DNA from: a virus | IMG/VR virus record: IMGVR_UViG_3300045988_092551 | Location: 25,210-89,209 of that record | Strand: one strand, 5' to 3' | DNA length: 64,000 nt | Shown here: positions 47,360 to 64,000 of the stretch, in pieces | Layout: the number at the start of each line of letters is the position of its first letter | Numbering within the stretch: position 1 is the stretch's first letter | Made by a program: the position numbers and the translations under genes | The notes under the pieces: model-generated | What the model saw: the letters and a program-made list of their open reading frames with translations, nothing else | Databases searched by the model: none | Told to the model about the DNA's origin: nothing

Positions 47360-48030
47360 CTACATTTTCCCCACTGACTATCTAGCAGTTAGCCAGTGGG
47401 AAATTTACACCGTACAAATTATGTGCGGTGCGGGTCGTCGTACCCTTATTTTTCCTATCACGTTTAGGCGTACAATTGTGGGTCAGTGCCGCATAAGGGA
47501 ACAAAACAGAGATTTTGGTATTATTCCAGAGAGAGAATTTATTCTCCCTCAGGGGATTTATTGCCAAAATTTCAGAGAGCTATCCGGCAAACGAATCTGT
47601 AGTGATACAGAAAGGCGGGCGAGAAATCCCGTCGTGGGTAGCGAGAGAGCACAGAGCCACCACGATACCGAATGAGATGAGGCACGTGGAAAGAGCGAGA
47701 GCCGTAGCTGTGCAGTTATCGAGCGAGATGACGGACGGATAAATCATAATTCATATTCTACCGGTTTGGAATTGTCCGGTCGGGCTGGTTACCCGAGAAT
47801 CAATTGTGTGTGCAATCACGATTTGCAGCGTATCAAGGCGCACACTATCCACGCTGACTGAAAGCGGTTGCTTGTCATCCGTGCGAGATTTATCTCCTCA
47901 GAAATAAACAAGCTGCTGGCAGAAGCATAAAATCTGTAGGGTGTGAGCCACGTAGTTAAGACGATAAAGATAAAACGTGGTGCAAAGATGCACATCCTGG
48001 CTAATGGGGCGGGGAGAAATCTCCGCTCTA
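47360..48030 (+). ncRNA. candidate large structured noncoding RNA (~670 nt, family unknown)
   Basis: Only short, implausible ORFs. More G+C rich by eye than the flanks. Many local helices: CCCACTG/CAGTGGG, CACCG/CGGTG, CTGTA-GTGA-TACAG, TCGGG/CCCGA, GTGTGC/GCACAC enclosing TGCAA/TTGCA, CCACGT/ACGTGG, GTGCA-AAGA-TGCAC, GCGGGGA-GAAA-TCTCCGC. Confidence 0.5.
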
Positions 48031-48060
48031 CAATTACAAACCATTTAAATATTTTAGATT

Positions 48061-48246
48061 ATGAAAGAACAGATTTTGAAGAAGATAGGAAAGACGCTTG
48101 TGCGTATTAATGTCACAAATCAGAGTGCAGAGGATGCCTACGATGAACTCGTTAACAGCAGTCCTCGCCTGTTTGGTATGCTTTCCAGTATCTACAGACT
48201 GAATGATGAAGAAGAAAGATTCGCTTGGTCTGCCGGAATCGCCTAA
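48061..48246 (+). CDS. cassette protein, hypothetical
   Basis: 61 aa. Leader AAACCATTTAAAT..AGATTATG. The stop lies in GCCTAAAAT, followed by the hairpin TCCCTACA/TGTAGGGA. Confidence 0.5.
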   Translation: MKEQILKKIGKTLVRINVTNQSAEDAYDELVNSSPRLFGMLSSIYRLNDEEERFAWSAGIA

Positions 48247-48295
48247 AATCTCCCTACACTTGTAGGGAACAATAACCAAAATTATTAGAATTATG

Positions 48296-48774
48296 AGTAC
48301 GATATCATTAGATTGCAGACTTACAGACAATATACAGCCACGTAGAATTCATGAGCTACAACGGAAAAAGACTTACCGTTGCAGTTCTAGCCTAAAAATC
48401 TGTAGCCAGTACGATAATTGTCGTGTGTGGCTACGGAACAATTACCAATAAAATTAGGATTATGACAGCGAGGCAAATCATTTATTCAAGTACGATAATT
48501 GTGCTTGGATTTATTCAGAGCGTGCCGGCATTTATCATGCTGGCGAGTACGAATATTATCGTAATTCTGCTTGGAATATTTTGGGGTATTCTGCTTGGAA
48601 TATTCTGGAGAAGTACGATAATTGGCAGATGGTTCTTCAGGGAGCTGTGGAGATCTACGCTCCGCTTGGAGAATTTCATCCTGCCTGGAGTGTGAGGAAT
48701 CTAGAAAGTACGATAATTGTGCTTGGAAACATTTAGCTAAATTCTGCTTGGAGAGATCCAGGCAGTACGATAAT
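48296..48774. repeat. cluster of AGTACGATAAT(T) and (T)CTGCTTGGA repeats
   Basis: AGTACGATA-type copies at 48296, 48408, 48489, 48546 (variant), 48612, 48707 and 48764. The 21-mer AGTACGATAATTGTGCTTGGA is exact at 48489 and 48707. TTCTGCTTGGAATATT occurs at 48566 and 48589. Extra copies at 50298 and 51429. Confidence 0.8.
48462..48695 (+). CDS. possible 77-aa hydrophobic protein (doubtful, built from DNA repeats)
   Basis: Has a leader-supported ATG. However its STII(V)LG / LLGIFW repeats are translations of DNA repeats that continue past the stop. Confidence 0.3.
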   Translation: MTARQIIYSSTIIVLGFIQSVPAFIMLASTNIIVILLGIFWGILLGIFWRSTIIGRWFFRELWRSTLRLENFILPGV

Positions 48775-48797
48775 ATAACCAACTAAATTACAGAATT

Positions 48798-48995
48798 ATG
48801 AAGAAGAATATTTTCGTGGCATTGTTTGCCGTAGTGTGTGTTGCATTAGTAGTTGTTTCAGTTACTCTGTACAATTGTCACAGAGCAAACGTGATGCTAA
48901 GAAAGACTGTTATTGCTCAAGCGAACGAGATTTCAGAGCTTAACGGCAGTTACACAGCAGAGGGAGCTACAACGTTCGTAGGTCTCAGAAAGTAG
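48798..48995 (+). CDS. cassette protein with N-terminal transmembrane helix
   Basis: 65 aa. N-terminus MKKNIFVALFAVVCVALVVVSV. Stop lies in TAGCCAAAA, followed by a 9-bp hairpin. Confidence 0.55.
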   Translation: MKKNIFVALFAVVCVALVVVSVTLYNCHRANVMLRKTVIAQANEISELNGSYTAEGATTFVGLRK

Positions 48996-49052
48996 CCAAA
49001 ACAGAGAGGAGTTTCCGCTCCTCTCTTCTATTAACCAAATTATTAGAGAAAT

Positions 49053-49382
49053 ATGGATAGAATATTAAAGCAAGATTTGAGCAAGAATGAGGTTATAGAC
49101 CTCTTGCGTGGAATGGACGCACAGGAAGTTGAGGGAAATTTCTCTGTACGTCGTGTCCTGATCAATACACAGGCGTGTGACGTATTCGGTGGAGAACCTG
49201 AGGACTCTTATCCTCTCATCCCCGGTACGTACATGGCATTGTATTACAAGAGTATTGCCGGAGACCCGTATCCGCTCTTTGAGAGAATATGTGAAAACAT
49301 AATAAATGACGAGAACAAGAGCCAGACTCTCCTGAATGGCGATGGCATTATTCTGATTTTCCTGCTCAACAAGTACGAGTAG
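49053..49382 (+). CDS. cassette protein, hypothetical
   Basis: 109 aa, bounded by the junction motifs. Confidence 0.6.
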   Translation: MDRILKQDLSKNEVIDLLRGMDAQEVEGNFSVRRVLINTQACDVFGGEPEDSYPLIPGTYMALYYKSIAGDPYPLFERICENIINDENKSQTLLNGDGIILIFLLNKYE

Positions 49383-49444
49383 CCAAAAATGTGCTCAGGC
49401 ATTTCCCTGGGCATACTATGTTAAACCATTTAAACGGAAGAATT

Positions 49445-49621
49445 ATGTTAGACAGAAAATCACAAAAGAACTTCGAACGTGCATTGCTCCACGAGATGGA
49501 GAAAATTAAAATTGCTGCACGCCAGTGGCACAACAACAATACTAAGGGCTACAGAGATTTCCGTAGCAAGGAGGCTATCTCAAAGAGTTTCTCTGAGATT
49601 GCAGTATTGTGCATGAGCTGA
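49445..49621 (+). CDS. cassette protein, hypothetical
   Basis: ORF 49391-49621 trimmed to the leader-supported ATG (GGAAGAATTATG). 58 aa. Confidence 0.5.
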   Translation: MLDRKSQKNFERALLHEMEKIKIAARQWHNNNTKGYRDFRSKEAISKSFSEIAVLCMS

Positions 49622-49670
49622 AATGTGCGTGGCGGTTGTCACGCATACTATTCACCAAAAATTATAGATT

Positions 49671-49964
49671 ATGATAGATGAAGAATACAAGAAGAATGTA
49701 GAGTACATGAACTCTGTCATCCTGCCACGATTGCAGGAGACTCAGAGAGAAGTATTGAAAAATCCATCAAGGCTCACTCTTGACATCAGCGTGAGAAACG
49801 ACAACGGCGAAGGGTATATCAGTTCTTTTGCCTGTGTCAGAAATAGCATGGGAGGAGAAATAACGGATACCTGTTATCCACGTTTCATCTGCGCAGACAG
49901 CAAAGAGGAGATGGACGAGCTCTTCAACGAGCTTAAAGAGTTCATCAAGAAGTACTCAGCCTGA
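49671..49964 (+). CDS. cassette protein, hypothetical
   Basis: 97 aa, bounded by the junction motifs. Confidence 0.6.
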   Translation: MIDEEYKKNVEYMNSVILPRLQETQREVLKNPSRLTLDISVRNDNGEGYISSFACVRNSMGGEITDTCYPRFICADSKEEMDELFNELKEFIKKYSA

Positions 49965-50014
49965 AAATTGAGGGAGTTTTATCTCCCTCTCCCACAAACC
50001 AAAAATGTAGAATT

Positions 50015-50284
50015 ATGAGTAAATGGGTACAATTCTATCACAAGATTAATAAGTTTGACCTTGTGAACATGAGATTTACAGAGGATTTCAGTATCGTGGA
50101 AATGACTGGTATGGATTCTATCTTGCCAGTTGACGGCAGATTTAACCTGTCATCCATACGAGCAGAGATACAGAAGAAAATCGAGAGCATGAAGAAAATC
50201 GAGAGTTTCGACCCTTGTGCGTTCTCCATCCTCACCGGCAGTTCTATTCTGTGTGCTTCAGAAAGTCCGGTGTACAATCTCTGA
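50015..50284 (+). CDS. cassette protein, hypothetical
   Basis: 89 aa, bounded by the junction motifs. Confidence 0.55.
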   Translation: MSKWVQFYHKINKFDLVNMRFTEDFSIVEMTGMDSILPVDGRFNLSSIRAEIQKKIESMKKIESFDPCAFSILTGSSILCASESPVYNL

Positions 50285-50342
50285 GCCAGAACTGGGCAGT
50301 ACGATAATGTGCTGCCTGCTATTAACCAAAACAGAATATATT

Positions 50343-50888
50343 ATGAGTAAGAAAAAAGTTGCAGGTCTTGAGAGACCTTACTCTCCTCGCAAATTAGGAG
50401 AGTTATTGTGTGAATACATCGTGCAGGGTGGATTTGAGGAGAGCGCAAAGCTTGATTATTTCTCCCCAAGCGATGATGATGTGACCGAAATTAAGAAAGA
50501 GACTTTTGACGTACTCTCTATTACTGAGTTCGGTTCAAATGAGGGCATTTACACGTCTTTCTACATTGATTATCCTGGAGAAAAGCGCATACGTCTGATG
50601 TGCGCCAAAACTTTGGGCGAGTCAAAGGAAGATTATGTAAATATGCATATAATGGGAGCTAACATTTGCTACTCTTTTATCAAATTCGTAAATAGAAATC
50701 GGGACAGCTTTATATGGTACGGTTACTTTGTCTATTATGCAATAGATAAAGGAGAGAAAAAATATTGCTGGTGTCATTCTATCGAGAGCGTTTATAATAA
50801 CGCTGACGACATTCTACAGAAGCATCCTAATGCGAGAGTATACTACATTGATTGTCAAACTCGGAAGAAGTATGGGTACAACTTCTAG
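50343..50888 (+). CDS. cassette protein, hypothetical
   Basis: ORF 50217-50888 trimmed to the leader-supported ATG. 181 aa. Confidence 0.6.
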   Translation: MSKKKVAGLERPYSPRKLGELLCEYIVQGGFEESAKLDYFSPSDDDVTEIKKETFDVLSITEFGSNEGIYTSFYIDYPGEKRIRLMCAKTLGESKEDYVNMHIMGANICYSFIKFVNRNRDSFIWYGYFVYYAIDKGEKKYCWCHSIESVYNNADDILQKHPNARVYYIDCQTRKKYGYNF

Positions 50889-50947
50889 CCAAAATGCGGG
50901 GCACATCCTGTGTCCTGCTTCTATTATTAACCAATCAAATTAGAATT

Positions 50948-51124
50948 ATGACAGACGGAGACAGAAGGTTCCTTGCCAGGCTCGTAGCGAGCCACAAGGC
51001 AGTTATCAGCGAGGAGTGCGCGAGAAAGAAGCTCGACAAGAGCGAGTATTTCAGACGTACGGCACGAGTGGACAGAAAAGCTCAGGAAATCGAGCGTGCC
51101 TGTATGCGTCCTCGCAAATTCTAG
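50948..51124 (+). CDS. cassette protein, hypothetical
   Basis: Trimmed to the leader-supported ATG. 58 aa, basic and helical. Confidence 0.5.
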   Translation: MTDGDRRFLARLVASHKAVISEECARKKLDKSEYFRRTARVDRKAQEIERACMRPRKF

Positions 51125-51186
51125 CCAACATTCTGTGCGGTCTATCTGCACAGAAACCATGTTTAACCATTTTAATTAGTAGAATT

Positions 51187-51402
51187 ATGGAACGATATTC
51201 ATGTAAGCAGCTGAAATCGCTTGTAGCAAGCGGTGTGGCAAAGGATGTAACCTACGCAGACAGTAGAAGTGAGATTCCTGAGAGTTATACTCAGATCGGG
51301 TATGCAGCAGGAATCTACGGTTGTAACGGAATGTTATTGAAGGGCAAGAGCGGACAGCTATACGCCGTGACAGGCAGAACATCTGCCATCTACATTTTTT
51401 AG
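51187..51402 (+). CDS. cassette protein, hypothetical
   Basis: Trimmed to the leader-supported ATG. 71 aa (MERYSCKQLKSLV...). Confidence 0.55.
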   Translation: MERYSCKQLKSLVASGVAKDVTYADSRSEIPESYTQIGYAAGIYGCNGMLLKGKSGQLYAVTGRTSAIYIF

Positions 51403-51457
51403 CCTAAAATCTCTCCATTCGCTTGGAGAGTACGATTATTAACTAAATATTAGAATT

Positions 51458-51805
51458 ATGACAACGGATTACTACACAGCCGTACACTGGCTAAAAAGTG
51501 CGTTCATCCTCTGTAACGAGATTGTAGAGAATGACGAATCAGTAATTGAAAACATCGAGTATCCAGAGTGGGCAAATGGCGATGAAGAAGAAAGGGACAG
51601 AATCGAGATATTTCAGTGGTTCCTCACTAACATGAGCGAAGAGGATAAGGAATGGATGCAGAAGAATTTCCCTGATCTTATCTTCTCTTACTCTGACAAG
51701 CTTGACTTGTGGATTCTTTGCGTAGATCATTTCGGAACGATGTGGAAGGGAGTCTCAACGACTACCAACTGCGAAAATGCGGCAAAGGCTAGCCAGCTGC
51801 CGTAG
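51458..51805 (+). CDS. cassette protein, hypothetical (acidic)
   Basis: 115 aa, bounded by the junction motifs. Confidence 0.6.
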   Translation: MTTDYYTAVHWLKSAFILCNEIVENDESVIENIEYPEWANGDEEERDRIEIFQWFLTNMSEEDKEWMQKNFPDLIFSYSDKLDLWILCVDHFGTMWKGVSTTTNCENAAKASQLP

Positions 51806-51862
51806 CCAAACCAATCCTCACTCTCACGGGTGGGGATTTCTATTAACCAATACAGATTGAAT

Positions 51863-52018
51863 ATGATTAAAATTGAGATTACTAGAGCCGGTATGGGTGA
51901 GAAATGCCCATATCCGAAGTTCAGCAAATTGCTGGCAAAAGGCTACATAATGTGCCATCGCTGCAAGTATTGTGATGAAATTATCAGCGAGACAGAAATA
52001 ATGTGTAATTATAATTAA
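51863..52018 (+). CDS. small Cys-rich cassette protein
   Basis: Trimmed to the leader-supported ATG. 51 aa with CHRCKYC. Confidence 0.45.
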   Translation: MIKIEITRAGMGEKCPYPKFSKLLAKGYIMCHRCKYCDEIISETEIMCNYN

Positions 52019-52026
52019 TTCGCCTT

Positions 52027-52251
52027 ATGAAAGAGATCTATATTTTATACAAATGTGACAGCTGGCACTCCTCAAATAGTATGGATGTGGTATTTGTAGG
52101 AAGTTCTGTAGAAAAATGCTGTTGGGCGGCGCATTGGAAAGGCGCGACTAACGAGCAGGTAAGACAGCTGAGAGATATTAGGCAGTCGCAGTGTACGAGC
52201 AATCGAGACTACGAGTTTCAGATAGATCACTGGAATATCGACAAGCTCTAA
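52027..52251 (+). CDS. cassette protein, hypothetical
   Basis: 74 aa. Shares a cassette with the previous gene, with no junction between them. Confidence 0.5.
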   Translation: MKEIYILYKCDSWHSSNSMDVVFVGSSVEKCCWAAHWKGATNEQVRQLRDIRQSQCTSNRDYEFQIDHWNIDKL

Positions 52252-52314
52252 GCCAAACATTTCCCAATTCTGTAGCAGGAATTGGGATTTCTATTAACCA
52301 AAGATTACAGAATT

Positions 52315-52554
52315 ATGAGTGACTTAGAGAAAATTTTGAATGACGATTTGCTGAAGTGTGAAATCGTAGAGTCTGTAGAGAATGCAGCAAGACGTGTGGA
52401 TCTTATCAAGTGGACGCACGACGGTTTATTTTCCGTTGCCGACTTACGCAAGGACACCGGAAAGCTTGAAATATCAGAAGTTCCAGAGACGGACGAGCTT
52501 GAAGCGTACAAGTATTTCTACAAAACCTATTGGAGTTTTGTTGTTTCTTCCTAA
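52315..52554 (+). CDS. cassette protein, hypothetical
   Basis: Trimmed to the leader-supported ATG. 79 aa. Confidence 0.55.
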   Translation: MSDLEKILNDDLLKCEIVESVENAARRVDLIKWTHDGLFSVADLRKDTGKLEISEVPETDELEAYKYFYKTYWSFVVSS

Positions 52555-52606
52555 AACTCCCCACGATAATGTGGGGAACCATTATAAACCATTTAAAAAT
52601 AGAATT

Positions 52607-53134
52607 ATGGAAAAGAATATTGTAGGAGAAGTTCTTAATTGCAAGGGTGAGGTTTTGGAGAAGATTGCTGATTATATCGGCACAAAAAGCTTTGCCACGG
52701 TAATCGAGAATCTCTATCGTGAGTGTCTTGAGAAGTTTGATGACGCAGAAGATTTGGAGGAATTTATATCTGATTTTGATGGAAGAAATATCCAGTCCAT
52801 GGCATGGGATTTCACTCTTGAAGTGAACAAGGAGATGAAGAAATATCTCCATATGGATTCTCAGAACATGAATGGTAATTTCGCCAATCTGCGCAACGAT
52901 TACCCTAGACATGTCACCGGTGTATTTTGGGCATCAGACTACGACGGCGACGATTACTATGACTTGTTTCCTCAGACGGTTGCCAGACTCGATGCCGCAG
53001 AAGACAGCGAGCAGGCGAACAAGGACAGAGCGTACCTCGAAGAATGGTATTTCAAAGCCTTCGGTACGTACAACATCAAGTACAATTTCTCGAACGAACT
53101 TGAAGAGATTCACTCTATGATGAAGGAAGCCTAA
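52607..53134 (+). CDS. cassette protein, hypothetical (acidic)
   Basis: ORF 52382-53134 trimmed to the leader-supported ATG. 175 aa. Confidence 0.6.
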   Translation: MEKNIVGEVLNCKGEVLEKIADYIGTKSFATVIENLYRECLEKFDDAEDLEEFISDFDGRNIQSMAWDFTLEVNKEMKKYLHMDSQNMNGNFANLRNDYPRHVTGVFWASDYDGDDYYDLFPQTVARLDAAEDSEQANKDRAYLEEWYFKAFGTYNIKYNFSNELEEIHSMMKEA

Positions 53135-53189
53135 CAATATCCCCTAGCATGGGGATATTCTATGTTAAACCATTTAAATGATATTAGAT

Positions 53190-54011
53190 ATGAGTTACGA
53201 ATTTGCAAAGAAGGAAATCGGTGATTACAGAATCACCATTTACCAGGATGAGGATGCCGAATGCCCTTGCAAAGGATGGGATTTGGTGGGAGTTTACTTC
53301 TGGGACTATTCCGACAACGGATACAATAGAGGTCTGTCTCGTGGTTGCAGCAGCGAAGTTGACGCTAAAAATGCAGAGGATGCTTTGAAAGAGCTTGTCT
53401 GCAAATATGTGTCACAAAAGAAGATTATCGACTACATCAATAGCGAAAATGTCGATAGCTTCCGTATGCGCTATGACAAGAGCGAGCACATGTGGCATCT
53501 TGAGAATCTGTACAATGGCGAGTGGTACTACCACGAAGAGTTCTGTCCGAGCGACTTGAAGAGATTCGACTATAGAGAAGAACTTTGCGATATCCTCGAA
53601 GAGGACGATTTCACGTATCTTCTGCATGACTGCAAGAATATTGCATTCTACGAGTGGTCCTCTACGGGCTACTGCCAGGGAGATTATGTTAGTGGATATG
53701 CCTACTGCGACAAGAAGCGCTTCTCCAAGTATTGTGACACGAACACAAAGAACTGGAGAAAGCGAGCCTTGGACTTATTTGAGGATGAGACTAAGTGCAT
53801 AGGTCTTTGGATGTGGGGCGATGTCAAGGGATTCGTCTTGGAAAAGAAAGTCCACTACAAGAAAGTCTTCACGGAAATCGGTAGAGAGCCGGAGGACGAC
53901 TATGAGTGGGAGCAGATTGATTCCCGCTGGGGAGAGTACTACGAGGACTCTGACGAGCTGATTAAAGACGCTCTCGAAGAGAATGGAATCAAACTAAAAG
54001 AAACAGCCTAA
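53190..54011 (+). CDS. cassette protein, hypothetical
   Basis: 273 aa, rich in Cys, Trp and Tyr. Leader ..TTAGATATG. Confidence 0.6.
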   Translation: MSYEFAKKEIGDYRITIYQDEDAECPCKGWDLVGVYFWDYSDNGYNRGLSRGCSSEVDAKNAEDALKELVCKYVSQKKIIDYINSENVDSFRMRYDKSEHMWHLENLYNGEWYYHEEFCPSDLKRFDYREELCDILEEDDFTYLLHDCKNIAFYEWSSTGYCQGDYVSGYAYCDKKRFSKYCDTNTKNWRKRALDLFEDETKCIGLWMWGDVKGFVLEKKVHYKKVFTEIGREPEDDYEWEQIDSRWGEYYEDSDELIKDALEENGIKLKETA

Positions 54012-54060
54012 CAAGGGGAGCTTGCATGCTCCTCTTCTATTAACCAAATTACAAAGAATT

Positions 54061-54402: not shown

Positions 54403-54449
54403 AATTGGTAGCCAGTTGGCTACCTACCATTAACTAAATAAATAGAATT

Positions 54450-54710: not shown

Positions 54711-54756
54711 AGATAGCCTCCGGGCTATCACTATAACCAATTAAACAAAGAGAATT

Positions 54757-55017: not shown

Positions 55018-55075
55018 CCTAAAAACGGAGGGAGTAATCCCTCTGACATTATTAACCAATAAATTATTAAGAATT

Positions 55076-55483: not shown

Positions 55484-55493
55484 CATCTATCAT

Positions 55494-55535: not shown

Positions 55536-55563
55536 AACAATATTAACCAAAATTACAAGAATT

Positions 55564-57108: not shown

Positions 57109-58415
57109 ATGAGCATCCTAGCGCAATGATTTGCCGGAATGAAGACACAAGGTTTTAAATATCCCGGTTGCGGAGTGCATGGACCTATCTCTTAATAAGA
57201 GATGGTCCTACGCTCGTCCTAAACCGGACATTATCGAACTTATAAAGCCATGCGCAGTATCTTCTGACCGGCATACTCTGTAACCGAGCACACGGACGTG
57301 GGAGAAGGACGGGCGAAGATTCAGGCGATGCCTCGTATAACATCATCTGAACATCCGACAATGCATGGATGTTCGTATGACGAACAAGGCGTAGCTCATC
57401 AACGAAGTACAGAAATGTGCCAGTCCGTATGACTTCCACTGGTGGCGCACACTACCAATCCCTGACGGATGGCTGAAGTTTATGCAACAGGTCTCTTAAC
57501 CAGAGTAGTTGATCCTGAGCGTCTTCGTATACTACTACGACCTCTGGATCATCTATTCTGGCGAATCCTGTGTCAAATCAGAAACATAAAGTATTGTGCC
57601 GAGCCATCGGTCAGTGAATTACCTTAGCACGAGGGTAGTCTTCAGAGGAGAGTTAATTCACGAGTGATGTTGTGCTCGCCGGCTAATGCTGGGAATCCCC
57701 AGCGTCATCCGGCGGGTTAACATCCCTCGAATCAAGCTGTTATAGCTACGTGTCACGCTCTCAGATAAAGACAACGTTATTGCCAAACGAGGTACACGAG
57801 GAGGTATCGGTTTATTCAACCCGCCTAGTATCAACGCGATATGTCTGGTAATACCAGCAATCTCGCGTATCGGCAAGCGGGTTAAATCATCAGCCTATAG
57901 TAAGGCAACAGACCTATGAGTGTACCTACAACAACCAAAGTGAATTGCATCACGACTTATCAAGAGTATGAGGTTTAATGTCACGTGAGTGGAATACCTG
58001 CGACGGCCGATATCTCCGCCGTCGCAGGTATCCAATCCACGGGACCTAATCGTGAACATATATCCATGCAACATAATACATGAGATAAGTCATGCGCATT
58101 GCAGCGATGTCTGGCAAGTTCTGAGTGTTCATCGAGCGTTTCATTGATTCTGAAGCCAAGGATGTGGAAGCATTCGCTTCCTGGAGGTTGGCTTCATAAC
58201 AATGCCACGCCCTTAATCGAAAACTTAAAGCAATGCAACGTATCAGGTTGAGTCAGACTAGGTTATTGCGAGCCGAAATGGTGTGCAAGGAGAATAGATT
58301 GTACAATACGGTATCAATCATCCTGAAGATCCAGGTGGTTACCTGGATCTGTCAGGACTTAGATACAGTATTTATCAAGACCTTATAGTTACGCAACAGA
58401 TTCTCTGAGCGCACT
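57109..58415 (+). ncRNA. candidate RT-associated structured noncoding RNA (~1.3 kb)
   Basis: No junction separates the RT stop from this region. There is no credible ORF: stops of all three kinds occur in every frame I read. It is G+C-richer by eye. Nested helices lie at 57181-57208, 57349-57374, 57677-57714, 57818-57883, 57991-58033, 58151-58196 and 58321-58357. Confidence 0.55.
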
Positions 58416-58441
58416 CCTATTAACCAATACTTTTTAGAATT

Positions 58442-58612
58442 ATGAGAAGAAAATATCGTGTAGGAATTGTAGAAACGTCGAACGGATTTGTGGACGTTGA
58501 GGCAAGTAGCGAAGAGGAAGCTAGAAAAAAGGCGTATGATGCATGGGCAAATGGTTATGCGGTTATGTGCGGAGATATAGATTGCAAGACCGCAGAAGTA
58601 TGTCCAGGCTAA
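58442..58612 (+). CDS. small DpnD/PcfM-like protein (paralog B; below ORF-track cutoff)
   Basis: Hand translation gives MRRKYRVGIVETSNGFVDVEASSEEEARKKAYDAWANGYAVMCGDIDCKTAEVCPG. Leader-supported ATG. The stop lies in GGCTAAAAA, followed by a hairpin. Confidence 0.5.
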   Translation: MRRKYRVGIVETSNGFVDVEASSEEEARKKAYDAWANGYAVMCGDIDCKTAEVCPG

Positions 58613-58660
58613 AAAATCCCACGCAATAGTGGGATTCTTATTAACCAATATTTTGAGAAT

Positions 58661-59113
58661 ATGACATACGACGAGATTATCAATGAAGTTGAGAATGGTG
58701 CTAAGTTCACCATCAACTTCCAGAAGAGAACATGCAGAGTGAACGGCAAGGTAGTAATGTCCGAGGAGGACAAGCCGAAGGACACGCCTTACCTTACACC
58801 TGAGGTAGTGTTTGTAGGCATCGAGCAGAGATATGCAGCGTACAAGCACTCTGTGCCGTCTGAGCGCTCCGAATCACATCGCCACTACTACTTCAAGGCT
58901 TTACCTGAGAAAGAACTCTCAGACGAAGATATGATGTACGGAGAGCGACGTGAAGTGGCGAGGTGCAAGCTGGAGCTGTACGTTCTTATGCAGCTACTCA
59001 GAGGCAACCTCTGGTGGGACAACTCATGGGGAACATGGTTCTGGTGTTCCAAGAACGACAAGGACCTGATTATCCTCAGAGACTGGATTGAGCCAAACAA
59101 GGGTGGGGCGTAA
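58661..59113 (+). CDS. cassette protein, hypothetical
   Basis: 150 aa with leader ..GAGAATATG. Confidence 0.6.
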   Translation: MTYDEIINEVENGAKFTINFQKRTCRVNGKVVMSEEDKPKDTPYLTPEVVFVGIEQRYAAYKHSVPSERSESHRHYYFKALPEKELSDEDMMYGERREVARCKLELYVLMQLLRGNLWWDNSWGTWFWCSKNDKDLIILRDWIEPNKGGA

Positions 59114-59170
59114 GCCTCATCCACTAGAGTTAAATAAATTTTTAGTAACCAATTTAAAATAATTAGAATT

Positions 59171-60208
59171 ATGAAGCAGATTGTAACAATCACTGGCGAG
59201 AACTTGAACATCGTAACTAACAATGTAGAGGCTACAGCAGCTACCAGTAAGAAGACCAAGGCGCAGATGCGTCTCGAAGCTCTGAAGGCAGCAGGCGTTG
59301 ACGTTAGCAAGTACTTCCCTCTCGGTGATGACCAGCTTATCAAGATCGAGAATGGTGCAGCTGTTCCTGTTGATATGGACGATTCGACCATCGATGCGGT
59401 AGGCAAGAAGATTGTCGAGGGTGGATACGTAAGTAACTGGAAGCTGTTCCGTCGTTGGGTTATGTCTCAAATGTTTCACATGTTGCGTAACATGAAGGAG
59501 GACGGCAAGTCATTCAACGAGGTTTTACAGAAGAAGGGCTACGAGTACCAGTGGCGCATGTTGGAGAACGAGCTGTATGCTCAGATGAAGATGTGTGACC
59601 ACAAGGACTACGAGAATCTCAAGGCGAGAAATCGCTGGTTCAACGGCTGCGTAGCACACGATATGACTATTGACTATATTAACAAGCTTCGCAGCTACAT
59701 TGACGACAAGTGCATCTACACTACCAAGAAAGATAAGGATGGAAACAAGAAGAAGACATACAAGCATACCTGCAAGGGTAATCCTTATATCCGTCTTCAG
59801 AACGAGGACATTTTTGTCGCAGACTTGGAGAGAAAGGTCTATACTCCTCTCCGTAACCTTGCCAACAAAATGGGTGCTGCAACGACCTACAAGGAGCTCT
59901 ACGATGCCGTTCGCGAGTTCAACAAGAACCGTAAGCATCTCGCTTGGGAGACTAAGATGTCTGATGCATTCATCAATGCCTATAAGGGTTCTGGTTCCTA
60001 CTATACGATGAGAAACCTCATTATGTTCCACGGAGCAAGATTCATGAAGGGCGGACGAAAGATGTCAGAAGCCAACTCGTTGAAGGAGCTTGAGTCCAAA
60101 GCCAAACTCTACGATGAAGAGGGTTGGAGAATGCTTGGTGTTCTCAAGCAGCTCATCAGCGAGTCAAACATTGACATCCAGGGCAAGATTAACGAGTGGA
60201 AGAAGTAA
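59171..60208 (+). CDS. cassette protein, hypothetical (largest non-enzymatic cassette)
   Basis: 345 aa with a leader-supported ATG. Confidence 0.65.
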   Translation: MKQIVTITGENLNIVTNNVEATAATSKKTKAQMRLEALKAAGVDVSKYFPLGDDQLIKIENGAAVPVDMDDSTIDAVGKKIVEGGYVSNWKLFRRWVMSQMFHMLRNMKEDGKSFNEVLQKKGYEYQWRMLENELYAQMKMCDHKDYENLKARNRWFNGCVAHDMTIDYINKLRSYIDDKCIYTTKKDKDGNKKKTYKHTCKGNPYIRLQNEDIFVADLERKVYTPLRNLANKMGAATTYKELYDAVREFNKNRKHLAWETKMSDAFINAYKGSGSYYTMRNLIMFHGARFMKGGRKMSEANSLKELESKAKLYDEEGWRMLGVLKQLISESNIDIQGKINEWKK

Positions 60209-60214
60209 TCTCTA

Positions 60215-60375
60215 GCAAGATGTAAGGTTCGCCGCCTGAAGAATGGTGGCTCGGCAGCAATTCACAAGAGCTTCTGCAACGAGAGGATCTCCTCCAGTTA
60301 CTACTGGAGATAGTCCTTCGAGCTAAAGCTCTCCAGATCAAACTACTAAAGTAAGGCGCAAGCCGGGAGCCATTC
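60215..60375 (+). ncRNA. candidate small structured RNA (~160 nt) occupying a cassette slot
   Basis: No ORF. Closing helix GAATGG..CTC..GGC (60241-60255) pairs with GCC..GAG..CCATTC (60362-60375). Inner hairpins are CTCCAG-TTACTA-CTGGAG (60292-60309) and GAGC-TAAA-GCTC (60320-60331). TAGCCAAAA plus a junction hairpin follow. Confidence 0.45.
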
Positions 60376-60438
60376 TAGCCAAAAGTCGGTTACTGATTCG
60401 GTAACCGATTCAATGTCTAACCAATAAAATGAAGAATT

Positions 60439-60831
60439 ATGAAAGAGATTAATGTAGACACAAGAAAGTATATTAAGGCTCCTGTTGACGGAAAGAATGT
60501 TGTTGAAGAATCACTTCTAGACGCCATCTTTGACGATTCGCAATATCTTAGCAATAAGTTCTCCATGGGATTTATCGGTGGTGTACCTACAATGATTGAG
60601 TATAACGGGAACTATTTATCTATCAAGAAGTTACGTCCGTGTAGTACATCAGAGTGGGGCAGAGAGATTGTTAAACGACTAACAGGCGAGTCCAAAAATA
60701 ACATATATTGTTACGAGACAAAGCAGTATCTCGACGAACGCCAGGCAGAGCCTTTAATCTATACATTCTCTCTGAGTACAGATTACCTTACAGTAAGATT
60801 TCACTACAATGTAAAAGTAGATGAAGATTAG
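60439..60831 (+). CDS. cassette protein, hypothetical
   Basis: 130 aa, bounded by the junction motifs. Confidence 0.6.
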   Translation: MKEINVDTRKYIKAPVDGKNVVEESLLDAIFDDSQYLSNKFSMGFIGGVPTMIEYNGNYLSIKKLRPCSTSEWGREIVKRLTGESKNNIYCYETKQYLDERQAEPLIYTFSLSTDYLTVRFHYNVKVDED

Positions 60832-60896
60832 CCAAACATGTCAGTCGTTAACAGCGGCTGACTCCTTATCATAACTAGATTTTGTTTAAATGGTTC

Positions 60897-60929
60897 AAAC
60901 CGGTCTGTCGTGAGACACGCCGGTTTTTT
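60897..60929 (+). terminator. terminator-like hairpin with T6
   Basis: AAACCGG...CCGGTTT with TTTTTT. It is the only junction in the array with a long U tract. Confidence 0.45.
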
Positions 60930-60963
60930 GTTCCCAAAGTTTAACCAATTAAAATTTTGAATT

Positions 60964-61398
60964 ATGGTAACAGCAAGAAGAGGTACAAAAATGCTCAAAG
61001 CTTCTGACATTATGAAGAGAAAGGGCATTGTCCAGAAACAGATGGACATGAACAAGTTCAATGAGGTTATAGAGAATTTCTTTATGACCCACGAGCCTAA
61101 GGATACGATTCTCCTTACGCCGAAGAGATTCATCGAGATGGATAACCCGCCAGAGGGTGACTTCATAGACTATCTCGATATCAGCGTGTGGGAGAAGAAA
61201 TGCGATGATCCTGATGACCCGTTCGACTTCATCGACTATCAGTTTATGAAGAAAAACGGGATGCTCCGACCTATCCTTATGGTGAACGAGCCTTTCATCG
61301 GCAATGCTGCCGGGTGGCTGAGAGATTTTTGTGGATTCACTGTGAAGAGCAGAACACGAAAGAAGAAGAAGGAATATATCGTGTCTCTGCCGGTGTAA
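60964..61398 (+). CDS. cassette protein, hypothetical
   Basis: 144 aa with a leader-supported ATG. Confidence 0.6.
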   Translation: MVTARRGTKMLKASDIMKRKGIVQKQMDMNKFNEVIENFFMTHEPKDTILLTPKRFIEMDNPPEGDFIDYLDISVWEKKCDDPDDPFDFIDYQFMKKNGMLRPILMVNEPFIGNAAGWLRDFCGFTVKSRTRKKKKEYIVSLPV

Positions 61399-61464
61399 AG
61401 CCGAACAAGGCGTGGAACATTATTGTTTCACGCTCCCAGTATTAACCAATTAAAATTTATGAAT

Positions 61465-62058
61465 ATGACTGATATTGAAAGAGTAAAGAGATTCGCATCC
61501 GAGAATGATTACCCAGGTGAGACATTGGACACAATAAACTGCTTCCGCAGACACAGTAAGACTCCAAAGGAAGACCTCGACAGCCTGGACAAGGCAACCG
61601 ATGAGGACTGGCTAGGTCTTATCGATGAGTACGAGGGCAATGGAATCAACTGGAAGGGAGAGTTCTCGGACGTTAAAGGAAACAGCGTAACACTTGGCGA
61701 CAAGGTTATGTGGAACAATCCAGATCCTGATGATTTCGATAAGTGGTACGAGAATTTCAAGATATGCACCGTAGATGATATATCAGGAGACCGAATATCA
61801 CTCAAGGACGAGGACGGAGATACGTTCGATGTAACCGATGATGAATGTACTTTAGCTCGAAAGCTTGATTACAAGCTCTATGAGGACGAGAAGTATCACT
61901 ATGGAGTGTGTGGGATGCTCCAGGATATCGAGAATGCCCGCACAATGACGAGCTATATCCACGATGACGACCTCAGATGGAAGCTTGATGCTGCGTGCAG
62001 ATGGTTCAAGGAACACATTGAGGCTGAGATTGCCAATCACATCGTAGAGAACCAGTAA
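61465..62058 (+). CDS. cassette protein, hypothetical (acidic)
   Basis: ORF 61423-62058 trimmed to the GAATATG start (61459 is also possible). 197 aa. Confidence 0.55.
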   Translation: MTDIERVKRFASENDYPGETLDTINCFRRHSKTPKEDLDSLDKATDEDWLGLIDEYEGNGINWKGEFSDVKGNSVTLGDKVMWNNPDPDDFDKWYENFKICTVDDISGDRISLKDEDGDTFDVTDDECTLARKLDYKLYEDEKYHYGVCGMLQDIENARTMTSYIHDDDLRWKLDAACRWFKEHIEAEIANHIVENQ

Positions 62059-62114
62059 GCCAAACAAGCCTGCCGGGAACGGTGGGCATCAAGTCAAACC
62101 AAAATATTAAGATT

Positions 62115-62636
62115 ATGGATAGAAAAGTATTGAAAGACAAGATTGATGAGTTGCGTTCAACAGCAAAGATGGAACTTGCATGCACCATCCGTGAGATAAT
62201 GAGAGAGCACAATGTGCAGAAGAAAGAACTTGGCAGGCCTGTAGTTGTCAACAATAGCAGTCTTGTAGATATCGTAGAGGTAGGTAGTGGTGATACCGAC
62301 ATCCCGGTTTTCGTCATAAATGTCGGTGTTGGCTACTACAAAGAGCCTCACAAGGTAAGTGCATTGGACGATAGCGTATCGGTCGAGCTACTCGCTGATA
62401 TTGCGACCGGGTTGAACAACGAACTGAGTGGCTACGTCAGCACTTATGTGGCAAAGTACAGATTCCTCTATGAAGACGGAACTACTGCTGACATGGATGA
62501 GCCTTATGTATTCCTTGCAGAATCAGAAAGAGATGCCAAAGATAAGGCAGATGACTATGCAGAGGTATGGAATGACTGGAATGAAGATACGATAGAACTC
62601 GTATCAGTCGAGAAACAGACTTCTTCGGAAAGTTAA
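62115..62636 (+). CDS. cassette protein, hypothetical
   Basis: Trimmed to the leader-supported ATG. 173 aa. Confidence 0.55.
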   Translation: MDRKVLKDKIDELRSTAKMELACTIREIMREHNVQKKELGRPVVVNNSSLVDIVEVGSGDTDIPVFVINVGVGYYKEPHKVSALDDSVSVELLADIATGLNNELSGYVSTYVAKYRFLYEDGTTADMDEPYVFLAESERDAKDKADDYAEVWNDWNEDTIELVSVEKQTSSES

Positions 62637-62663
62637 TTTAGCGTTAAAAACGGCAAAGGTGAT

Positions 62664-62679
62664 GGTTTATATTATAAAC
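62664..62679. promoter_or_regulatory. palindrome GGTTTATATTATAAAC (operator-like, copy 2)
   Basis: Identical to 46393-46408. Sits 7 nt upstream of the integrase -7 box. Confidence 0.5.
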
Positions 62680-62685
62680 TTTTAG

Positions 62686-62693
62686 TATCTTTG
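62686..62693 (+). promoter_or_regulatory. -7 box TATCTTTG for the integrase
   Basis: TAnnTTTG, 27 nt before ATG 62720. Same TAGTATCTTTGC string as at 46725. Confidence 0.5.
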
Positions 62694-62719
62694 CCACTAG
62701 TAACCAAAATATTAGAATT

Positions 62720-63763
62720 ATGACAGAAGAATTAAGAATCAAGACAAGAGACTGGGAACGCCTGCTGAGTCCTGTTCAGCAGGAGAAGTATAAGCTCGCT
62801 ATCAAGCAGGGCTGGTTCGCCAACTATCACGACAACGCATGGAGGCATAACACCTTCTATGGAGCTTATATCTGGAAGAATCCGAAGTTCATAAAGGTAG
62901 TAAGGATGTTCGAGGAGCTGTTGGGGCACAAGCCATTGTGGGAAGACATCACTGACGACAACCTCCGTGACCTCTTTGAGAAGATCAAGGAGAACTATGC
63001 TCCCAATTCCGCAAAGACCGTATGCGCCACCATCAAGGCTGTGATACGTGAGAACGATGCTACGAAGGAGATTAACAGCCCTACGTTCGGAAAGATACTC
63101 AGAACGAAGGCAGTTCCAGTACAGTCCGTCTATCTCTCGGATGAGGAGATAGATAGAATCATCAATTACAATCCGAGGGGACAGACTAGGAGATATGTCC
63201 AGCGCATGTTCCTCATGGAATGCCTCTGTGGAGCACGCTACAGCGATTGTCAGAGAATAACTCCTGAGAACATCGATGATACCGGGCATTTCCTTGTGTA
63301 TGTGGCACAGAAGACAAAGACGGAGGTAAGGGTTCCTCTCCACAAGAAGCTCCGTCCGTTCCTTGTATGCGGCACTGGAGTCGAGCCTCTTCCTGGTGAA
63401 ATCAGCGAGATGACCTTCAACCGAACTCTTCGTGACATCTGCCGTGATTGTGGAATAGACGAGAACACGAAGGTGTTCCATGCAGGTAAGGAAGAGACCG
63501 GAAAGAAGTACCTCTTCATCTCTTCACACACCGGCAGACGTTCGTTCGCCACGAATCTCTCCAAGAAAGGCGTACCGTTGGAGCAGATTGCCGTTATGAT
63601 GGGGCATACTAGTAACGGTAAGCCTAATATCCAGATGACGCAACGGTACATCGTTGGTAAGACCGAGATTGACAGCAATACCCTGAGACTGTTCGGTGTA
63701 TACGATAAGGATCTGTATGATGGTTTAGATGAGGACCAAGCTAAAACTGGAGATGGCCATTAG
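62720..63763 (+). CDS. int: tyrosine recombinase / phage integrase
   Basis: 347 aa. GARYSD (Arg box), SSHTGRRSFAT (HxxR), MMGH and QRY (catalytic Tyr). Confidence 0.8.
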   Translation: MTEELRIKTRDWERLLSPVQQEKYKLAIKQGWFANYHDNAWRHNTFYGAYIWKNPKFIKVVRMFEELLGHKPLWEDITDDNLRDLFEKIKENYAPNSAKTVCATIKAVIRENDATKEINSPTFGKILRTKAVPVQSVYLSDEEIDRIINYNPRGQTRRYVQRMFLMECLCGARYSDCQRITPENIDDTGHFLVYVAQKTKTEVRVPLHKKLRPFLVCGTGVEPLPGEISEMTFNRTLRDICRDCGIDENTKVFHAGKEETGKKYLFISSHTGRRSFATNLSKKGVPLEQIAVMMGHTSNGKPNIQMTQRYIVGKTEIDSNTLRLFGVYDKDLYDGLDEDQAKTGDGH

Positions 63764-63802
63764 CTATCTCCTGCTATTGTTTAACCAATTTAAATAACGA
63801 AT

Positions 63803-64000
63803 ATGGCAGAAGATAATAAAAAAGAACTCATCAATGAGTGCCAGGAAAAGTATGCCGAGCTTATAAAGCAGACGGTCATAAAGGCACTCACAGGCGAGAT
63901 TTCTACGAACTCCGCTATGGTAAATGAATTGGAGTCACTTAACTTCCAATACCACGAGGAGATGGACGAGTACGACGATACGGCGCCTGACCTTAACCCG
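63803..64000 (+). CDS. cassette protein, 5' partial at window edge
   Basis: Leader GTTTAACCAATTTAAATAACGAATATG. The frame is open to the window end (MAEDNKKELINECQEKY...). Confidence 0.5.
   Translation, partial: MAEDNKKELINECQEKYAELIKQTVIKALTGEISTNSAMVNELESLNFQYHEEMDEYDDTAPDLNP

Follow-up and report, generated by a model that had tools for sequence, protein, structure and literature searches.

Background

Two described phage systems come closest to the element treated here, a composite junction that separates the genes of an accessory array in the virus record IMGVR_UViG_3300045988_092551. The closest by behaviour is the promoter-early stem-loop (PeSL) of T4-type phages (Arbiol 2010, PMC2839356; Comeau 2014, PMC4122927), in which a stem-loop and a conserved expression signal, a near-consensus host sigma-70 early promoter, are repeated ahead of many small open reading frames (ORFs) in hyperplastic regions, are tied to indels and replacements between close relatives, and have been proposed to allow modular shuffling via recombination in the conserved motif. 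The closest by layout is the start-associated sequence (SAS), with its extended form (ESAS), of Cluster K mycobacteriophages, the SAS being an asymmetric motif found 3-7 bp upstream of the starts of many non-structural genes, in one orientation and with a strong preference for ATG, which sometimes contains the upstream stop codon, has an inverted repeat just upstream in about half of the cases, and is suspected of a role in translation (Pope 2011, PMC3203893). The present analysis concerns a 64,000-nt stretch of the record (positions 25,210-89,209; hereafter the window, in whose positions all coordinates are given), in which 32 co-oriented + strand genes of 51-421 codons form an array from ~48005 to the window end (roughly 16 kb). 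The phage belongs to a family of uncultured ~88-kb human-gut phages, siphovirus-like phages (siphophages) of gut Bacteroidales, whose complete contigs cluster at 85-91 kb. The junctions of the array are composite expression signals that also mediate shuffling, of the same kind as PeSL and SAS/ESAS, in a phylum with non-canonical transcription and translation signals. Most likely the junction standardises the expression of each gene, and it is clearly a site where related phages swap genes.

With the PeSLs the junctions share a stem-loop upstream of a conserved block and a setting of hyperplastic, variable ORFs, but not the host primary-sigma two-box promoter: the block has no match to Bacteroidetes promoters and runs to the ATG as a translation leader. 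The junction hairpins also lack a U-tract, a further motif overlaps the upstream stop codon, and the host phylum and phage type are different. With the SAS, to which it is unrelated in sequence, the junction leader shares its asymmetry, single orientation and position close upstream of the start, and the junction shares a stop codon within the motif. However, the SAS has a Shine-Dalgarno (SD) core (AGGAG) that can pair with 16S rRNA, whereas the junction leader is SD-free and has no 16S complement; the ESAS arms are conserved in sequence without RNA covariation, whereas the junction stems all differ and show a G.U bias and RNA tetraloops; and no cassette-shuffling role has been described for the SAS. 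Intercistronic hairpins are also known from REP-type elements and the early RNase III sites of T7, where they set the stability or processing of transcript segments and protect the 3' ends of cistrons. The position of the hairpins directly behind stop codons in polycistronic mRNAs is a common feature, but those elements form sequence families, whereas the junction hairpins are all different and their 6-12-bp stems are too short for classical RNase III.

Architecture of the junction

About 28 of the 31 gene-to-gene spaces share one layout, consisting of stop motif, hairpin, core, spacer and AGAATT-ATG. The upstream stop codon lies inside or adjoining (A)GCC(A/T)AAA, and a GC-rich hairpin with a 6-12-bp stem begins 2-10 nt past it. 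The core AACCAA follows 5-10 nt past the stem, usually with (C)TATT before it (consensus NCNATT-AACCAA), and an A/T-rich, nearly G-free spacer of 11-17 nt leads from AACCAA to the ATG, which AGAATT abuts. Across ~180 non-redundant junctions these distances from stem to core and from core to ATG hold, and an A-tract stands 0-2 nt ahead of the stem. The distance from 5' motif to core is variable (28-41 nt). The 5' motif is merely degenerate in half of the junctions, its constant part being the A-tract just before the stem. (A)GCCWAAA and AACCAAA are near-identical direct repeats (AGCCAAA / AACCAAA) bracketing each hairpin. The original prediction, made from the sequence of the window, held that the motif is conserved independently of reading frame, with the stop in two registers; there are at least three registers (TAG-CC in 42, GCC-TAA in 29 and TAA-GCC in 17 of 198 non-redundant junctions).

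The pattern is real and far beyond chance. TTAACCAA occurs 14 times in the window, 13 times on the + strand (49031-63788) and once on the - strand at 41257, against 1.8 +/- 1.3 in shuffled sequence (0/100 shuffles reach 14). AGAATTATG occurs 20 times, 19 of them on the + strand in 48287-62722 (shuffles 0.86), and AGCCWAAA 13 times against 5.0 expected, with 9 of the 13 on the + strand in the array. A composite leader pattern, [AT]AACCA-N6-18-A[AT]T[AT]TG, is found in 47900-64000 26 times on the + strand and 0 times on the - strand, and twice in the other 47.9 kb; Bacteroidales DNA (725 kb) contains the pattern at a background rate of 0.11 per strand and 16 kb, which places the array >200-fold above that level. 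Compared with dinucleotide shuffles, 25 of 29 junction segments fold with z < -2 (mean -2.9), against +0.09 for same-sized coding controls. With motif counts and folding so far above shuffles and background, the predicted near-universal shared gene boundary is borne out. The particular hairpins named as carrying G.U pairs are also present, as are the shared helix base with different tops in the hairpins at 49390 and 49624, and the 5' motif near 60376 (TAG-CCAAAAG, junction 27) that has no ORF before it.

Departures from the layout are a coupled gene pair (52018/52027, 8-nt gap), a junction lacking a convincing hairpin (59113/59171), two cases in which the leader comes after a long non-coding stretch (58410-58444; 60375-60441), a compound junction to which a canonical terminator is added (60829-60966), and the recombinase junction with a host-type promoter (62634-62722). 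The sole reverse copy of the junction, on the - strand at 41257-41304, consists of a hairpin (41269-41294), TTAACCAA and, 5 nt further on, TAGAATT, with ACG in the place of the ATG; read on the + strand, its hairpin is a T-run terminator.

Among GenBank phages no close annotated relative was found, megablast giving zero matches and hence no nucleotide-level relative there. The terminase of the window (TerL) and its counterpart in the Bacteroides LoVEphage group share 59% identity, but LoVEphage-type phages share with the window just distant structural genes, and the junction motif is absent from LoVEphage. Relatives were therefore drawn from IMG/VR, by a pattern scan (>119 loci) and by protein-seeded scans (at least 80 loci each). 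At least 139 IMG/VR loci, all belonging to gut phages of ~85-91 kb, have the same junction architecture, so that the conservation in related genomes proposed as a check on the pattern was found. The architecture is absent from the replication and structural modules of the relatives and from Bacteroidales chromosomal DNA, and the modules flanking the array (replication/recombination upstream of window position 1; a second recombinase and an antirepressor downstream) likewise lack the motif. Three divergent arrays (L059, L070 and L114) have almost no nucleotide homology to the window and still keep the junction. In the relatives the array ends one or two genes past the recombinase, and the array of this phage is accordingly predicted to extend one or two genes past the window end. 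Rfam gave no match in the window at gathering thresholds and nothing of note at E <= 1 in 46-64 kb, no tRNAs were found in the window, and a literature search found no paper describing this motif in Bacteroides phages.

Hairpins as sense-strand RNA

Stems were scored symmetrically, with G.T and A.C tolerated equally. The internal mismatches of the non-redundant hairpin clusters are nevertheless G.T (G.U in RNA) in 40 cases and A.C in 9 (p = 9e-6), and the corresponding counts for all distinct hairpins are 219 and 23. Of 29 loops of 4 nt, 14 belong to the GNRA or UNCG type and just 1 to their antisense equivalents, and the sense fold is the more stable in 376 junctions, the antisense fold in 166. 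A crude alignment of orthologous hairpins gave 20 stem positions changed on both sides and 17 with wobble changes, with loop positions varying in 44% and stem positions in 25%. There are 93-100 different hairpin clusters, in which structure is conserved and sequence is not. The 8 nt past the stem have a U content of about one-third and the consensus N-C-N-A-U-U-A-A, with no U-tract, and a terminator scan (5-of-8-T rule) was passed by a handful of junctions; canonical T-run terminators are used elsewhere in the same phage (60900-60929; 41269-41304). Because of the G.U bias, the RNA-type loops, the stability of the sense fold, the missing U-tract and the use of terminators elsewhere, the junction hairpins are read as probable mRNA structures and not as efficient intrinsic terminators. 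The mismatch and loop counts thus support the original claim that the hairpins act as RNA of the sense strand.

Two other origins of the hairpins were considered. Terminators acting in the antisense direction, for which the A-tract would be a U-run on the other strand, are ruled out by the G.U bias and the tetraloops on the sense RNA, and mobile hairpins resembling miniature inverted-repeat transposable elements (MITEs) are ruled out by stems that differ at every junction.

Leader and translation initiation

In a family logo aligned on the ATG, A reaches a frequency of 0.87 at -3, 0.71 at -4, 0.75 at -6 and 0.65-0.75 at -11 to -14, and G makes up 1-12% across the leader spacer. Experiments in Flavobacterium johnsoniae showed that SD-independent initiation is stimulated by A at positions -3, -6, -12 and -13 and by a run of A spanning -14 to -11 (Baez 2019, PMC6847099), and the leader agrees with the features of Bacteroidetes SD-independent initiation given in that study (A at -3, -6 and -12/-13; low G+C; lack of structure). 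Because its adenine positions match the F. johnsoniae determinants, the leader has the appearance of an idealised Bacteroidetes start region.

Pairing of the leader with 16S rRNA as an enhancer (T7 epsilon-like) was rejected, no conserved complement of AACCAA, AGAATTAT or AGCCAAA being present in 39 Bacteroidales 16S genes. A Nus-factor boxB-boxA element was also rejected: YCTATTAACCAA resembles the E. coli boxA GCTCTTTAACAA, but Bacteroidales rrn leaders lack the junction motif. A boxA-like core TTCTTTGA is found in 79 of 104 such leaders, within GTTCTTTGAAAG in the examples read, and TATTAACC and TTAACCAA are found in none of the 104.

Other start regions of the phage family have different appearances. 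The tightly packed + strand genes at 30-1500 of the window are preceded by GGAGG-type SD-like sequences (e.g. AAAGGAGGCAATCATG), which differ from the array leaders and are not usual in phages of Bacteroidales, and just past the array of one relative (L124, 12200-12650) two successive genes share another conserved leader, TAAGCCCTAYSGCATCACGGTYAAGCGSAAA..AATATG.

Cassette exchange among related phages

In BLAST comparisons of the window with related loci, 510 of 684 internal homology-block ends fall in junctions, which make up 25% of the sequence, and the ends pile up at the stop motif, the core and the ATG. When 1208 junction instances were parsed, the gene tails formed 156 clusters, the hairpins 100 and the gene heads 139; 51 of the 100 hairpin clusters are found with more than one downstream gene head and 41 with more than one upstream tail, and one hairpin module may stand between many unrelated gene pairs, with the stop codon in differing registers. 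The spacer from AACCAA to ATG goes with the downstream gene: spacers ahead of the same gene have a similarity of 0.885 (39% of them identical), those that share the hairpin instead 0.733, and the background is 0.677, which points to a common crossover at or just before AACCAA. The hairpin is more tied to the upstream gene, with a conditional entropy over protein families of 0.87 bits against 1.25 bits for the downstream gene. Since spacer and hairpin follow the downstream and upstream gene, respectively, the exchanged unit appears to be AACCAA-leader-ORF-stop motif-hairpin.

The 139 loci contain 1915 cassette genes in 151 families, 60 of them singletons. Their order is colinear, just 25 of 1329 family pairs being seen in both orders, and 74 of 143 families have at least two different right-hand neighbours. 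This pattern bears the signature expected of homologous or short-homology exchange between aligned genomes, as distinct from site-specific insertion. Comparison of cassette content and order between relatives, which had been proposed as a check, therefore places the breakpoints in the junctions, and the suggestion that the junctions are recombination boundaries is strongly supported, breakpoints and cassette combinations falling at AACCAA and the stop motif.

Proteins for recombination are encoded nearby. The phage family has two tyrosine recombinases, one in the array (62720-63763 in the window) and one on the other strand ~6 kb downstream (L124, 16573-17739), and a NinB-like recombination protein is encoded upstream. 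In the precomputed Pfam annotation the array recombinase, which has its own host-type promoter, shows just the Phage_integrase catalytic family with no SAM-like N-terminal domain listed; the second recombinase has a SAM-like domain. The array recombinase protein is restricted to metagenome contigs of <=200 kb, and for this reason no integrated copy was seen. With its recombinases and antirepressor, the phage carries temperate-type genes.

Promoters, terminators and transcription factors

The host promoter consensus is TTTG / TAnnTTTG with G at -5 (PMC6847099), and it is visible in Bacteroidales rrn promoters. It is absent from the ordinary junctions of the array. The original prediction that TAnnTTTG does not occur in the array save before the integrase needs correction as to number, since there are five + strand matches (50050, 54575, 54975, 55387 and 62686), but holds for intergenic sequence, where the integrase copy is the only one; the four others are intragenic, at about chance level.

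Two host-type promoters show how the leader relates to transcription. Ahead of the first rightward gene (46795-47319), the region 46728-46797 contains a -7 box TAtcTTTG (46728-46735) with a predicted +1 near 46740, a hairpin AGATAG/CTATCT (46750-46766), a 6-nt gap, AACCA (46773-46777) and the ATG at 46795; the 3' two-thirds of a junction (hairpin-AACCA-ATG) thus lie inside the predicted primary 5' untranslated region (5'UTR). A repeat here has 81% identity with the 48039-48069 leader, and the 46728 promoter itself is free of overlap with any junction motif. At the recombinase promoter (62686) the predicted +1 lies about 3 nt ahead of TAACCAA. In the relatives, at least four further junction types have TAnnTTTG 7-10 nt before the core, and with G at -5 the +1 of promoter-bearing junctions falls 2-5 nt before AACCAA. 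Because the predicted +1 of these host-type promoters precedes AACCAA, the leader is expected to be transcribed wherever a normal promoter exists, with AACCAA at or near the RNA 5' end. These findings favour a role at the RNA level, a promoter needing an unrecognised phage factor being conceivable.

A 17-nt near-palindrome, GGTTTATATTATAAACT, is present in two identical copies, at 46393-46409, where an AT-rich control region precedes the first rightward promoter, and at 62664-62680 just upstream of the recombinase promoter, and a phage repressor probably uses it as operator. The control region (46.2-46.8 kb) also shows a mild enrichment of TAACCA. The relatives carry a -7 box TAaaTTTG ~15 nt ahead of the terminator of junction 28 (60878-60931), which would give a ~45-nt transcript, possibly a tiny small RNA or an attenuator.

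A search for proteins that could redirect transcription covered the larger window proteins (tape measure, tail, terminase, portal, PAPS-reductase-like protein and primase), the cassette proteins, which have almost no Pfam matches, and the ten largest ORFs on each side in the 10-kb flanks of the relatives (RNase H, SPFH, second recombinase, antirepressor, helicase, DUF3127 and NinB; most without match). No phage RNA polymerase, sigma factor or known appropriator was found among these proteins, a set that excludes many smaller ORFs of window 1-47 kb and of the flanks, and from which distant folds may escape.

Interpretation

The explanation tentatively preferred, at slightly less than even probability, is an RNA-level intercistronic module, in which a 3' stabiliser or insulator hairpin is joined to a standard initiation leader and the conserved blocks double as crossover points. 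Host RNA polymerase would transcribe the array as long transcripts from a few host-type promoters (46728 and 62686). The hairpin after each stop would not terminate transcription, but would mark the 3' edge of the cistron, block 3' exonucleases and shield the next start from upstream structure, and the G-free, A-rich leader of 20-25 nt would act as a standardised, strong SD-independent initiation region. The invariant AACCAA and AGAAUU may be a common handle for one regulator or RNase, which could switch the whole array or cut monocistronic units in the NCNAUU linker. Gene exchange would be a consequence of the repeated blocks: because the same short blocks flank every gene, recombination between relatives infecting one cell joins cassettes exactly at AACCAA and less often at the stop motif, giving a colinear, replaceable array. 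RNA stability or processing sites and a shared translational leader or operator had both been among the meanings originally proposed; they are compatible with the data and form the best-supported class, with a leader that matches the initiation determinants and lies inside host-promoter transcripts at two places.

Several points weigh against the RNA-level module. Gene 60964 has a canonical terminator just 15 nt ahead of its leader (60940-60948), and a terminator-like hairpin stands behind gene 46795, so that long transcripts would need read-through of both, and the arrangement is easier to explain if AACCAA is a promoter mark; a primary 5' end at AACCAA is conceivable. The initiation rules leave the CC of AACCAA, the G of AGAATT/AGAAUU and the GCC of the stop motif unexplained. 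Single-stranded DNA, too, tolerates G.T wobbles and loops of the GNA type, and a hairpin of the top DNA strand may be envisaged. No candidate regulator or RNase was identified.

The first of these points leads to an unlikely but serious alternative of the PeSL type, in which the hairpin would end the upstream transcript and TATTAACCAA would be a single-element promoter for host RNA polymerase modified by a phage factor (perhaps the protein encoded by the first gene, 46795-47319), each cassette being its own transcription unit with a start at AACCAA or just past it. Phages do have promoters of a single element, the T4 late TATAAATA being one, and the cassette defined by recombination (AACCAA ... 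hairpin) would be a plausible transcription unit. The best argument for such a phage-factor promoter is the leader standing directly behind a canonical terminator (60900-60948), and the predicted +1 right at the motif in promoter-bearing junctions suggests that AACCAA may mark mRNA 5' ends generally. A stem-loop with a conserved block in an indel-rich, hyperplastic region fits the PeSL pattern (PMC4122927), and to that extent the units originally proposed by analogy with PeSLs stand; what fits less well is the transcriptional part, the hairpins having no U-tracts, the block being unlike TTTG/TAnnTTTG, the varying distance from 5' motif to core allowing no two-box promoter, and the scanned proteins including no sigma factor, RNA polymerase or known appropriator. 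Conservation that reaches the ATG and fits the translation determinants, and ordinary promoters already present upstream of two leader-bearing genes, also argue against this alternative and for the RNA-level module.

Readings at the DNA level fare worse. It is improbable that AACCAA and/or (A)GCCWAAA are sites bound by a phage regulator that silences or co-activates all accessory genes. In favour of such sites, the motifs resemble L5 stoperators (set in contrast to the SAS in PMC3203893) and P1 C1 operators in being many, short, asymmetric, in one orientation and confined to short intergenic spaces overlapping start and stop codons; the phage has temperate-type genes; and the direct repeats around each hairpin and the mild TAACCA enrichment of the control region are compatible with binding. 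However, stoperators are 13-17-bp repressor sites identical to the early-promoter operator, whereas the conserved blocks here are short (6-8 bp), the sole clear operator-like promoter repeat has a different sequence (GGTTTATATTATAAACT, 46393 and 62664), and the motif is coupled to a hairpin whose RNA-type selection and tight spacing to AACCAA point to RNA; nor was an integrated copy seen, given the size of the recombinase contigs. Very improbable is a dedicated exchange site, either attC-like and used by the array tyrosine recombinase, or representing the ends of cassette transcripts that the UG27 reverse transcriptase (RT) had turned back into DNA. The array does resemble an integron in its co-oriented, mostly promoterless small genes, in crossovers within conserved cores of 6-10 nt beside a sequence-variable structure after each stop, in the strand asymmetry of the hairpins, and in the presence of a tyrosine recombinase under its own promoter, along with an RT. 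But the R'' (RYYYAAC) and R' (GTTRRRY) sites of attC are mutually complementary, whereas (A)GCCWAAA and TTAACCAA resemble each other in direct and not in inverted orientation; the recombinase is not IntI, giving weak, generic Xer-like NCBIfam matches (23-39 bits against cut-offs of 220-335) with no integron-integrase model among them; the colinear gene order fits homologous exchange and not site-specific or retro-insertion; and the hairpins have RNA-type loops, including the RNA-specific UNCG. The remaining probability belongs to mixtures or to none of these four readings.

A further idea, which is doubtful, is that AACCAA and AGCCAAA, bracketing any hairpin, are the recognition site of a dedicated phage factor, making one regulon of ~30 accessory genes. 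Such a factor could be an RNA-binding regulator, an endoribonuclease, or a protein redirecting RNA polymerase to a new class of Bacteroidetes promoter, and would switch on, cut or shut off the array. Binding of a factor to the invariant non-adenine positions would make the array a new phage regulon, and the junction the first phage-specific gene-expression code described for SD-less Bacteroidales phages.

With the junction, the exact limits of the members of at least 151 accessory gene families, few of which have a known function, can be read from the sequence, in a phage family that is abundant in the gut and uncultured. The cassette pool, which includes DpnD/PcfM-like proteins and a UG27 RT module, is a catalogue of candidate host-takeover or anti-defence genes, and it gives a population-scale view of short conserved expression signals channelling mosaic evolution in a Bacteroidales phage, parallel to the T4 PeSLs but in another host phylum and under other rules of expression. 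The leader is a natural, standardised SD-free start with ~30 uses per genome, suggesting a test bed for Bacteroidetes start-site choice and a candidate portable expression part for Bacteroides engineering.

Individual junctions

All junctions described here lie on the + strand. Behind the first rightward gene (46795-47319), at 47327-47359, a 12-bp stem followed by TTTCCCC resembles a terminator or attenuator. The array starts with junction 1 (48005-48063), in which a hairpin (48005-48030) is followed by the core AAACCA (48039-48044), the leader TTTTAGATT and the ATG at 48061. Junction 2 (48240-48295) has GCC-TAA-AA, a hairpin (48251-48268), TAACCAA (48273-48279) and AGAATTATG, with z -3.96. 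Junction 3 (48389-48464) begins with AGCCTAAA at 48389 and continues with a hairpin (48402-48434) whose loop contains GTACGATAAT, the core ACCAAT at 48444 and the ATG at 48462; the upstream ORF reads across motif and hairpin to a stop at 48449-48451. Junction 4 (48693-48800) lacks the 5' motif and has two hairpins (48697-48715 and 48744-48765) ahead of ATAACCAA (48775-48782) and AGAATTATG. TAG-CCAAAA opens both junction 5 (48993-49055; hairpin 49003-49026, CTATTAACCAA, ATG 49053, z -4.5) and junction 6 (49380-49447; hairpin 49390-49415, TTAAACCAT, AGAATTATG). The helix base of the latter recurs with another top in junction 7 (49619-49673), where TGAAA precedes the hairpin (49624-49647), TTCACCAAA and TAGATTATG. 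Next come junction 8 (49962-50017) with GCC-TGA-AAA, a hairpin at 49970-49989, CAAACCAA and AGAATTATG, and junction 9 (50282-50345) with TGA-GCCAGAA, a hairpin at 50293-50318 (loop containing GTACGATAAT), CTATTAACCAA and the ATG at 50343.

The stop is TAG in the following four junctions: junction 10 (50886-50950; TAG-CCAAAA, hairpin 50896-50918 with G.U pairs, TTATTAACCAA, AGAATTATG), junction 11 (51122-51189; TAG-CCAACA, hairpin 51131-51155, AACCAT twice, AGAATTATG), junction 12 (51400-51460; TAG-CCTAAAA, hairpin 51411-51430, TTATTAACTAA, AGAATTATG) and junction 13 (51803-51865; TAG-CCAAAC, hairpin 51813-51838, CTATTAACCAA, ATG 51863). The hairpin module of junction 13 stands behind seven different gene tails in the relatives. 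No junction separates the coupled genes 51863-52018 and 52027-52251 (52016-52029). Junction 15 (52249-52317) has TAA-GCCAAAC, a hairpin at 52262-52287, CTATTAACCAA and AGAATTATG; junction 16 (52552-52609) has TAAAAC, a hairpin at 52558-52577, AACCAT twice and AGAATTATG. AGCC-TAA is common to the next four, being followed by CAA in junction 17 (53128-53192; hairpin 53137-53158, TTAAACCAT, ATG 53190, with an in-frame ATG also at 53178) and junction 18 (54005-54063; hairpin 54013-54036, CTATTAACCAA, AGAATTATG), by AA in junction 19 (54396-54452; hairpin 54407-54424, CATTAACTAA, AGAATTATG) and by AG in junction 20 (54704-54759; hairpin 54712-54729, CTATAACCAA, AGAATTATG). Junction 21 (55015-55078) consists of TAG-CCTAAAAA, a hairpin at 55026-55045 with a GUAA loop, TTATTAACCAA and AGAATTATG, and its hairpin module is found between many different gene pairs in the relatives.

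In junction 22 (55481-55566) a TAA stop is followed by a compound hairpin (55493-55536), ATATTAACCAA and AGAATTATG. Junction 23 (55792-55845), before the UG27 RT, has TAG-CCAAAT, a hairpin at 55800-55819 with a GCAA loop, CAATAACCAA and AGAATTATG; three other hairpins are found in front of the RT gene in relatives. Junction 24 (58410-58444) is a leader only, CTATTAACCAA (58417-58427) and AGAATTATG, after the 1.33-kb structured non-coding stretch behind the RT. Junction 25 (58610-58663) has GGC-TAA-AAAA, a hairpin at 58615-58636, TTATTAACCAA and GAGAATATG (z -4.5), and junction 26 (59111-59173) has TAA-GCCTCA, no convincing hairpin (z -0.3), GTAACCAA and AGAATTATG. Junction 27 (60375-60441), preceded by structured non-coding sequence (60209-60374), has a 12-bp hairpin (60384-60410), TCTAACCAA and AGAATTATG. 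The compound junction 28 (60829-60966) comprises TAG-CCAAAC, a hairpin at 60840-60862, the T-run terminator at 60900-60929, TTTAACCAA at 60940-60948 and TGAATTATG. Hairpins with G.U pairs mark junction 29 (61396-61467; TAA-AGCCGAAC, hairpin 61409-61434, GTATTAACCAA, ATG 61465 or 61459) and junction 30 (62056-62117; TAA-GCCAAAC, hairpin 62068-62087, TCAAACCAA, AAGATTATG). In junction 31 (62634-62722), before the tyrosine recombinase, the 3' arm of a long hairpin contains the -7 box TAtcTTTG (62686-62693), with a predicted +1 near 62698, TAACCAA at 62701-62707 and AGAATTATG. Junction 32 (63761-63806) has TAG-CTATC, a weak hairpin, GTTTAACCAA (63779-63788) and CGAATATG, and the gene behind it runs off the window end.

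Reverse transcriptase module and non-coding stretches

The RT (55843-57108) is a full-length UG27-class enzyme (PADLOC E = 1e-227), and two RT-associated models, RTas346 and RTas337, are matched by the products of the genes at 58661-59113 and 59171-60208. The RT is separated from this gene pair by 1.33 kb of non-coding sequence (57109-58441), whose predicted fold is very stable (-467 kcal/mol, at a length beyond the 1-kb range of the shuffle control), and by a small gene of the DpnD/PcfM-like type (58442-58612). In the non-coding stretch there is neither an Rfam match nor a repeat of the type found in diversity-generating retroelements (DGRs); a DGR around the RT is ruled out, the stretch having no repeat copy elsewhere in the window. 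An RT with a non-coding gap of ~1.2-1.3 kb recurs in relatives. The DpnD/PcfM-like cassette genes at 55564-55794 and 58442-58612 are paralogues and the source of most apparent conflicts in gene order; the family is otherwise known from conjugative elements.

Two shorter non-coding stretches are also structured. Between the first rightward gene and the array, just past the hairpin at 47327-47353, ~680 nt without a convincing ORF (47355-48035) fold with z -4.6 and may be a structured RNA, a read-through or antitermination element being conceivable. After gene 59171-60208, a 200-nt non-coding stretch (60209-60412; -72 kcal/mol, z -3.9) is conserved in relatives and ends in the orphan TAG-CCAAAAG and the 12-bp hairpin. 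The sequence GTACGATAAT occurs in exactly six + strand copies, all in 48409-50308, some of them in frame in a small hydrophobic ORF (48462-48695), where they encode a repeated S-T-I-I, and others in or beside junction hairpin loops. This observation concerns 48409-48774, 50299 and 51430, and ACGAT-containing loops recur in the junctions of relatives.

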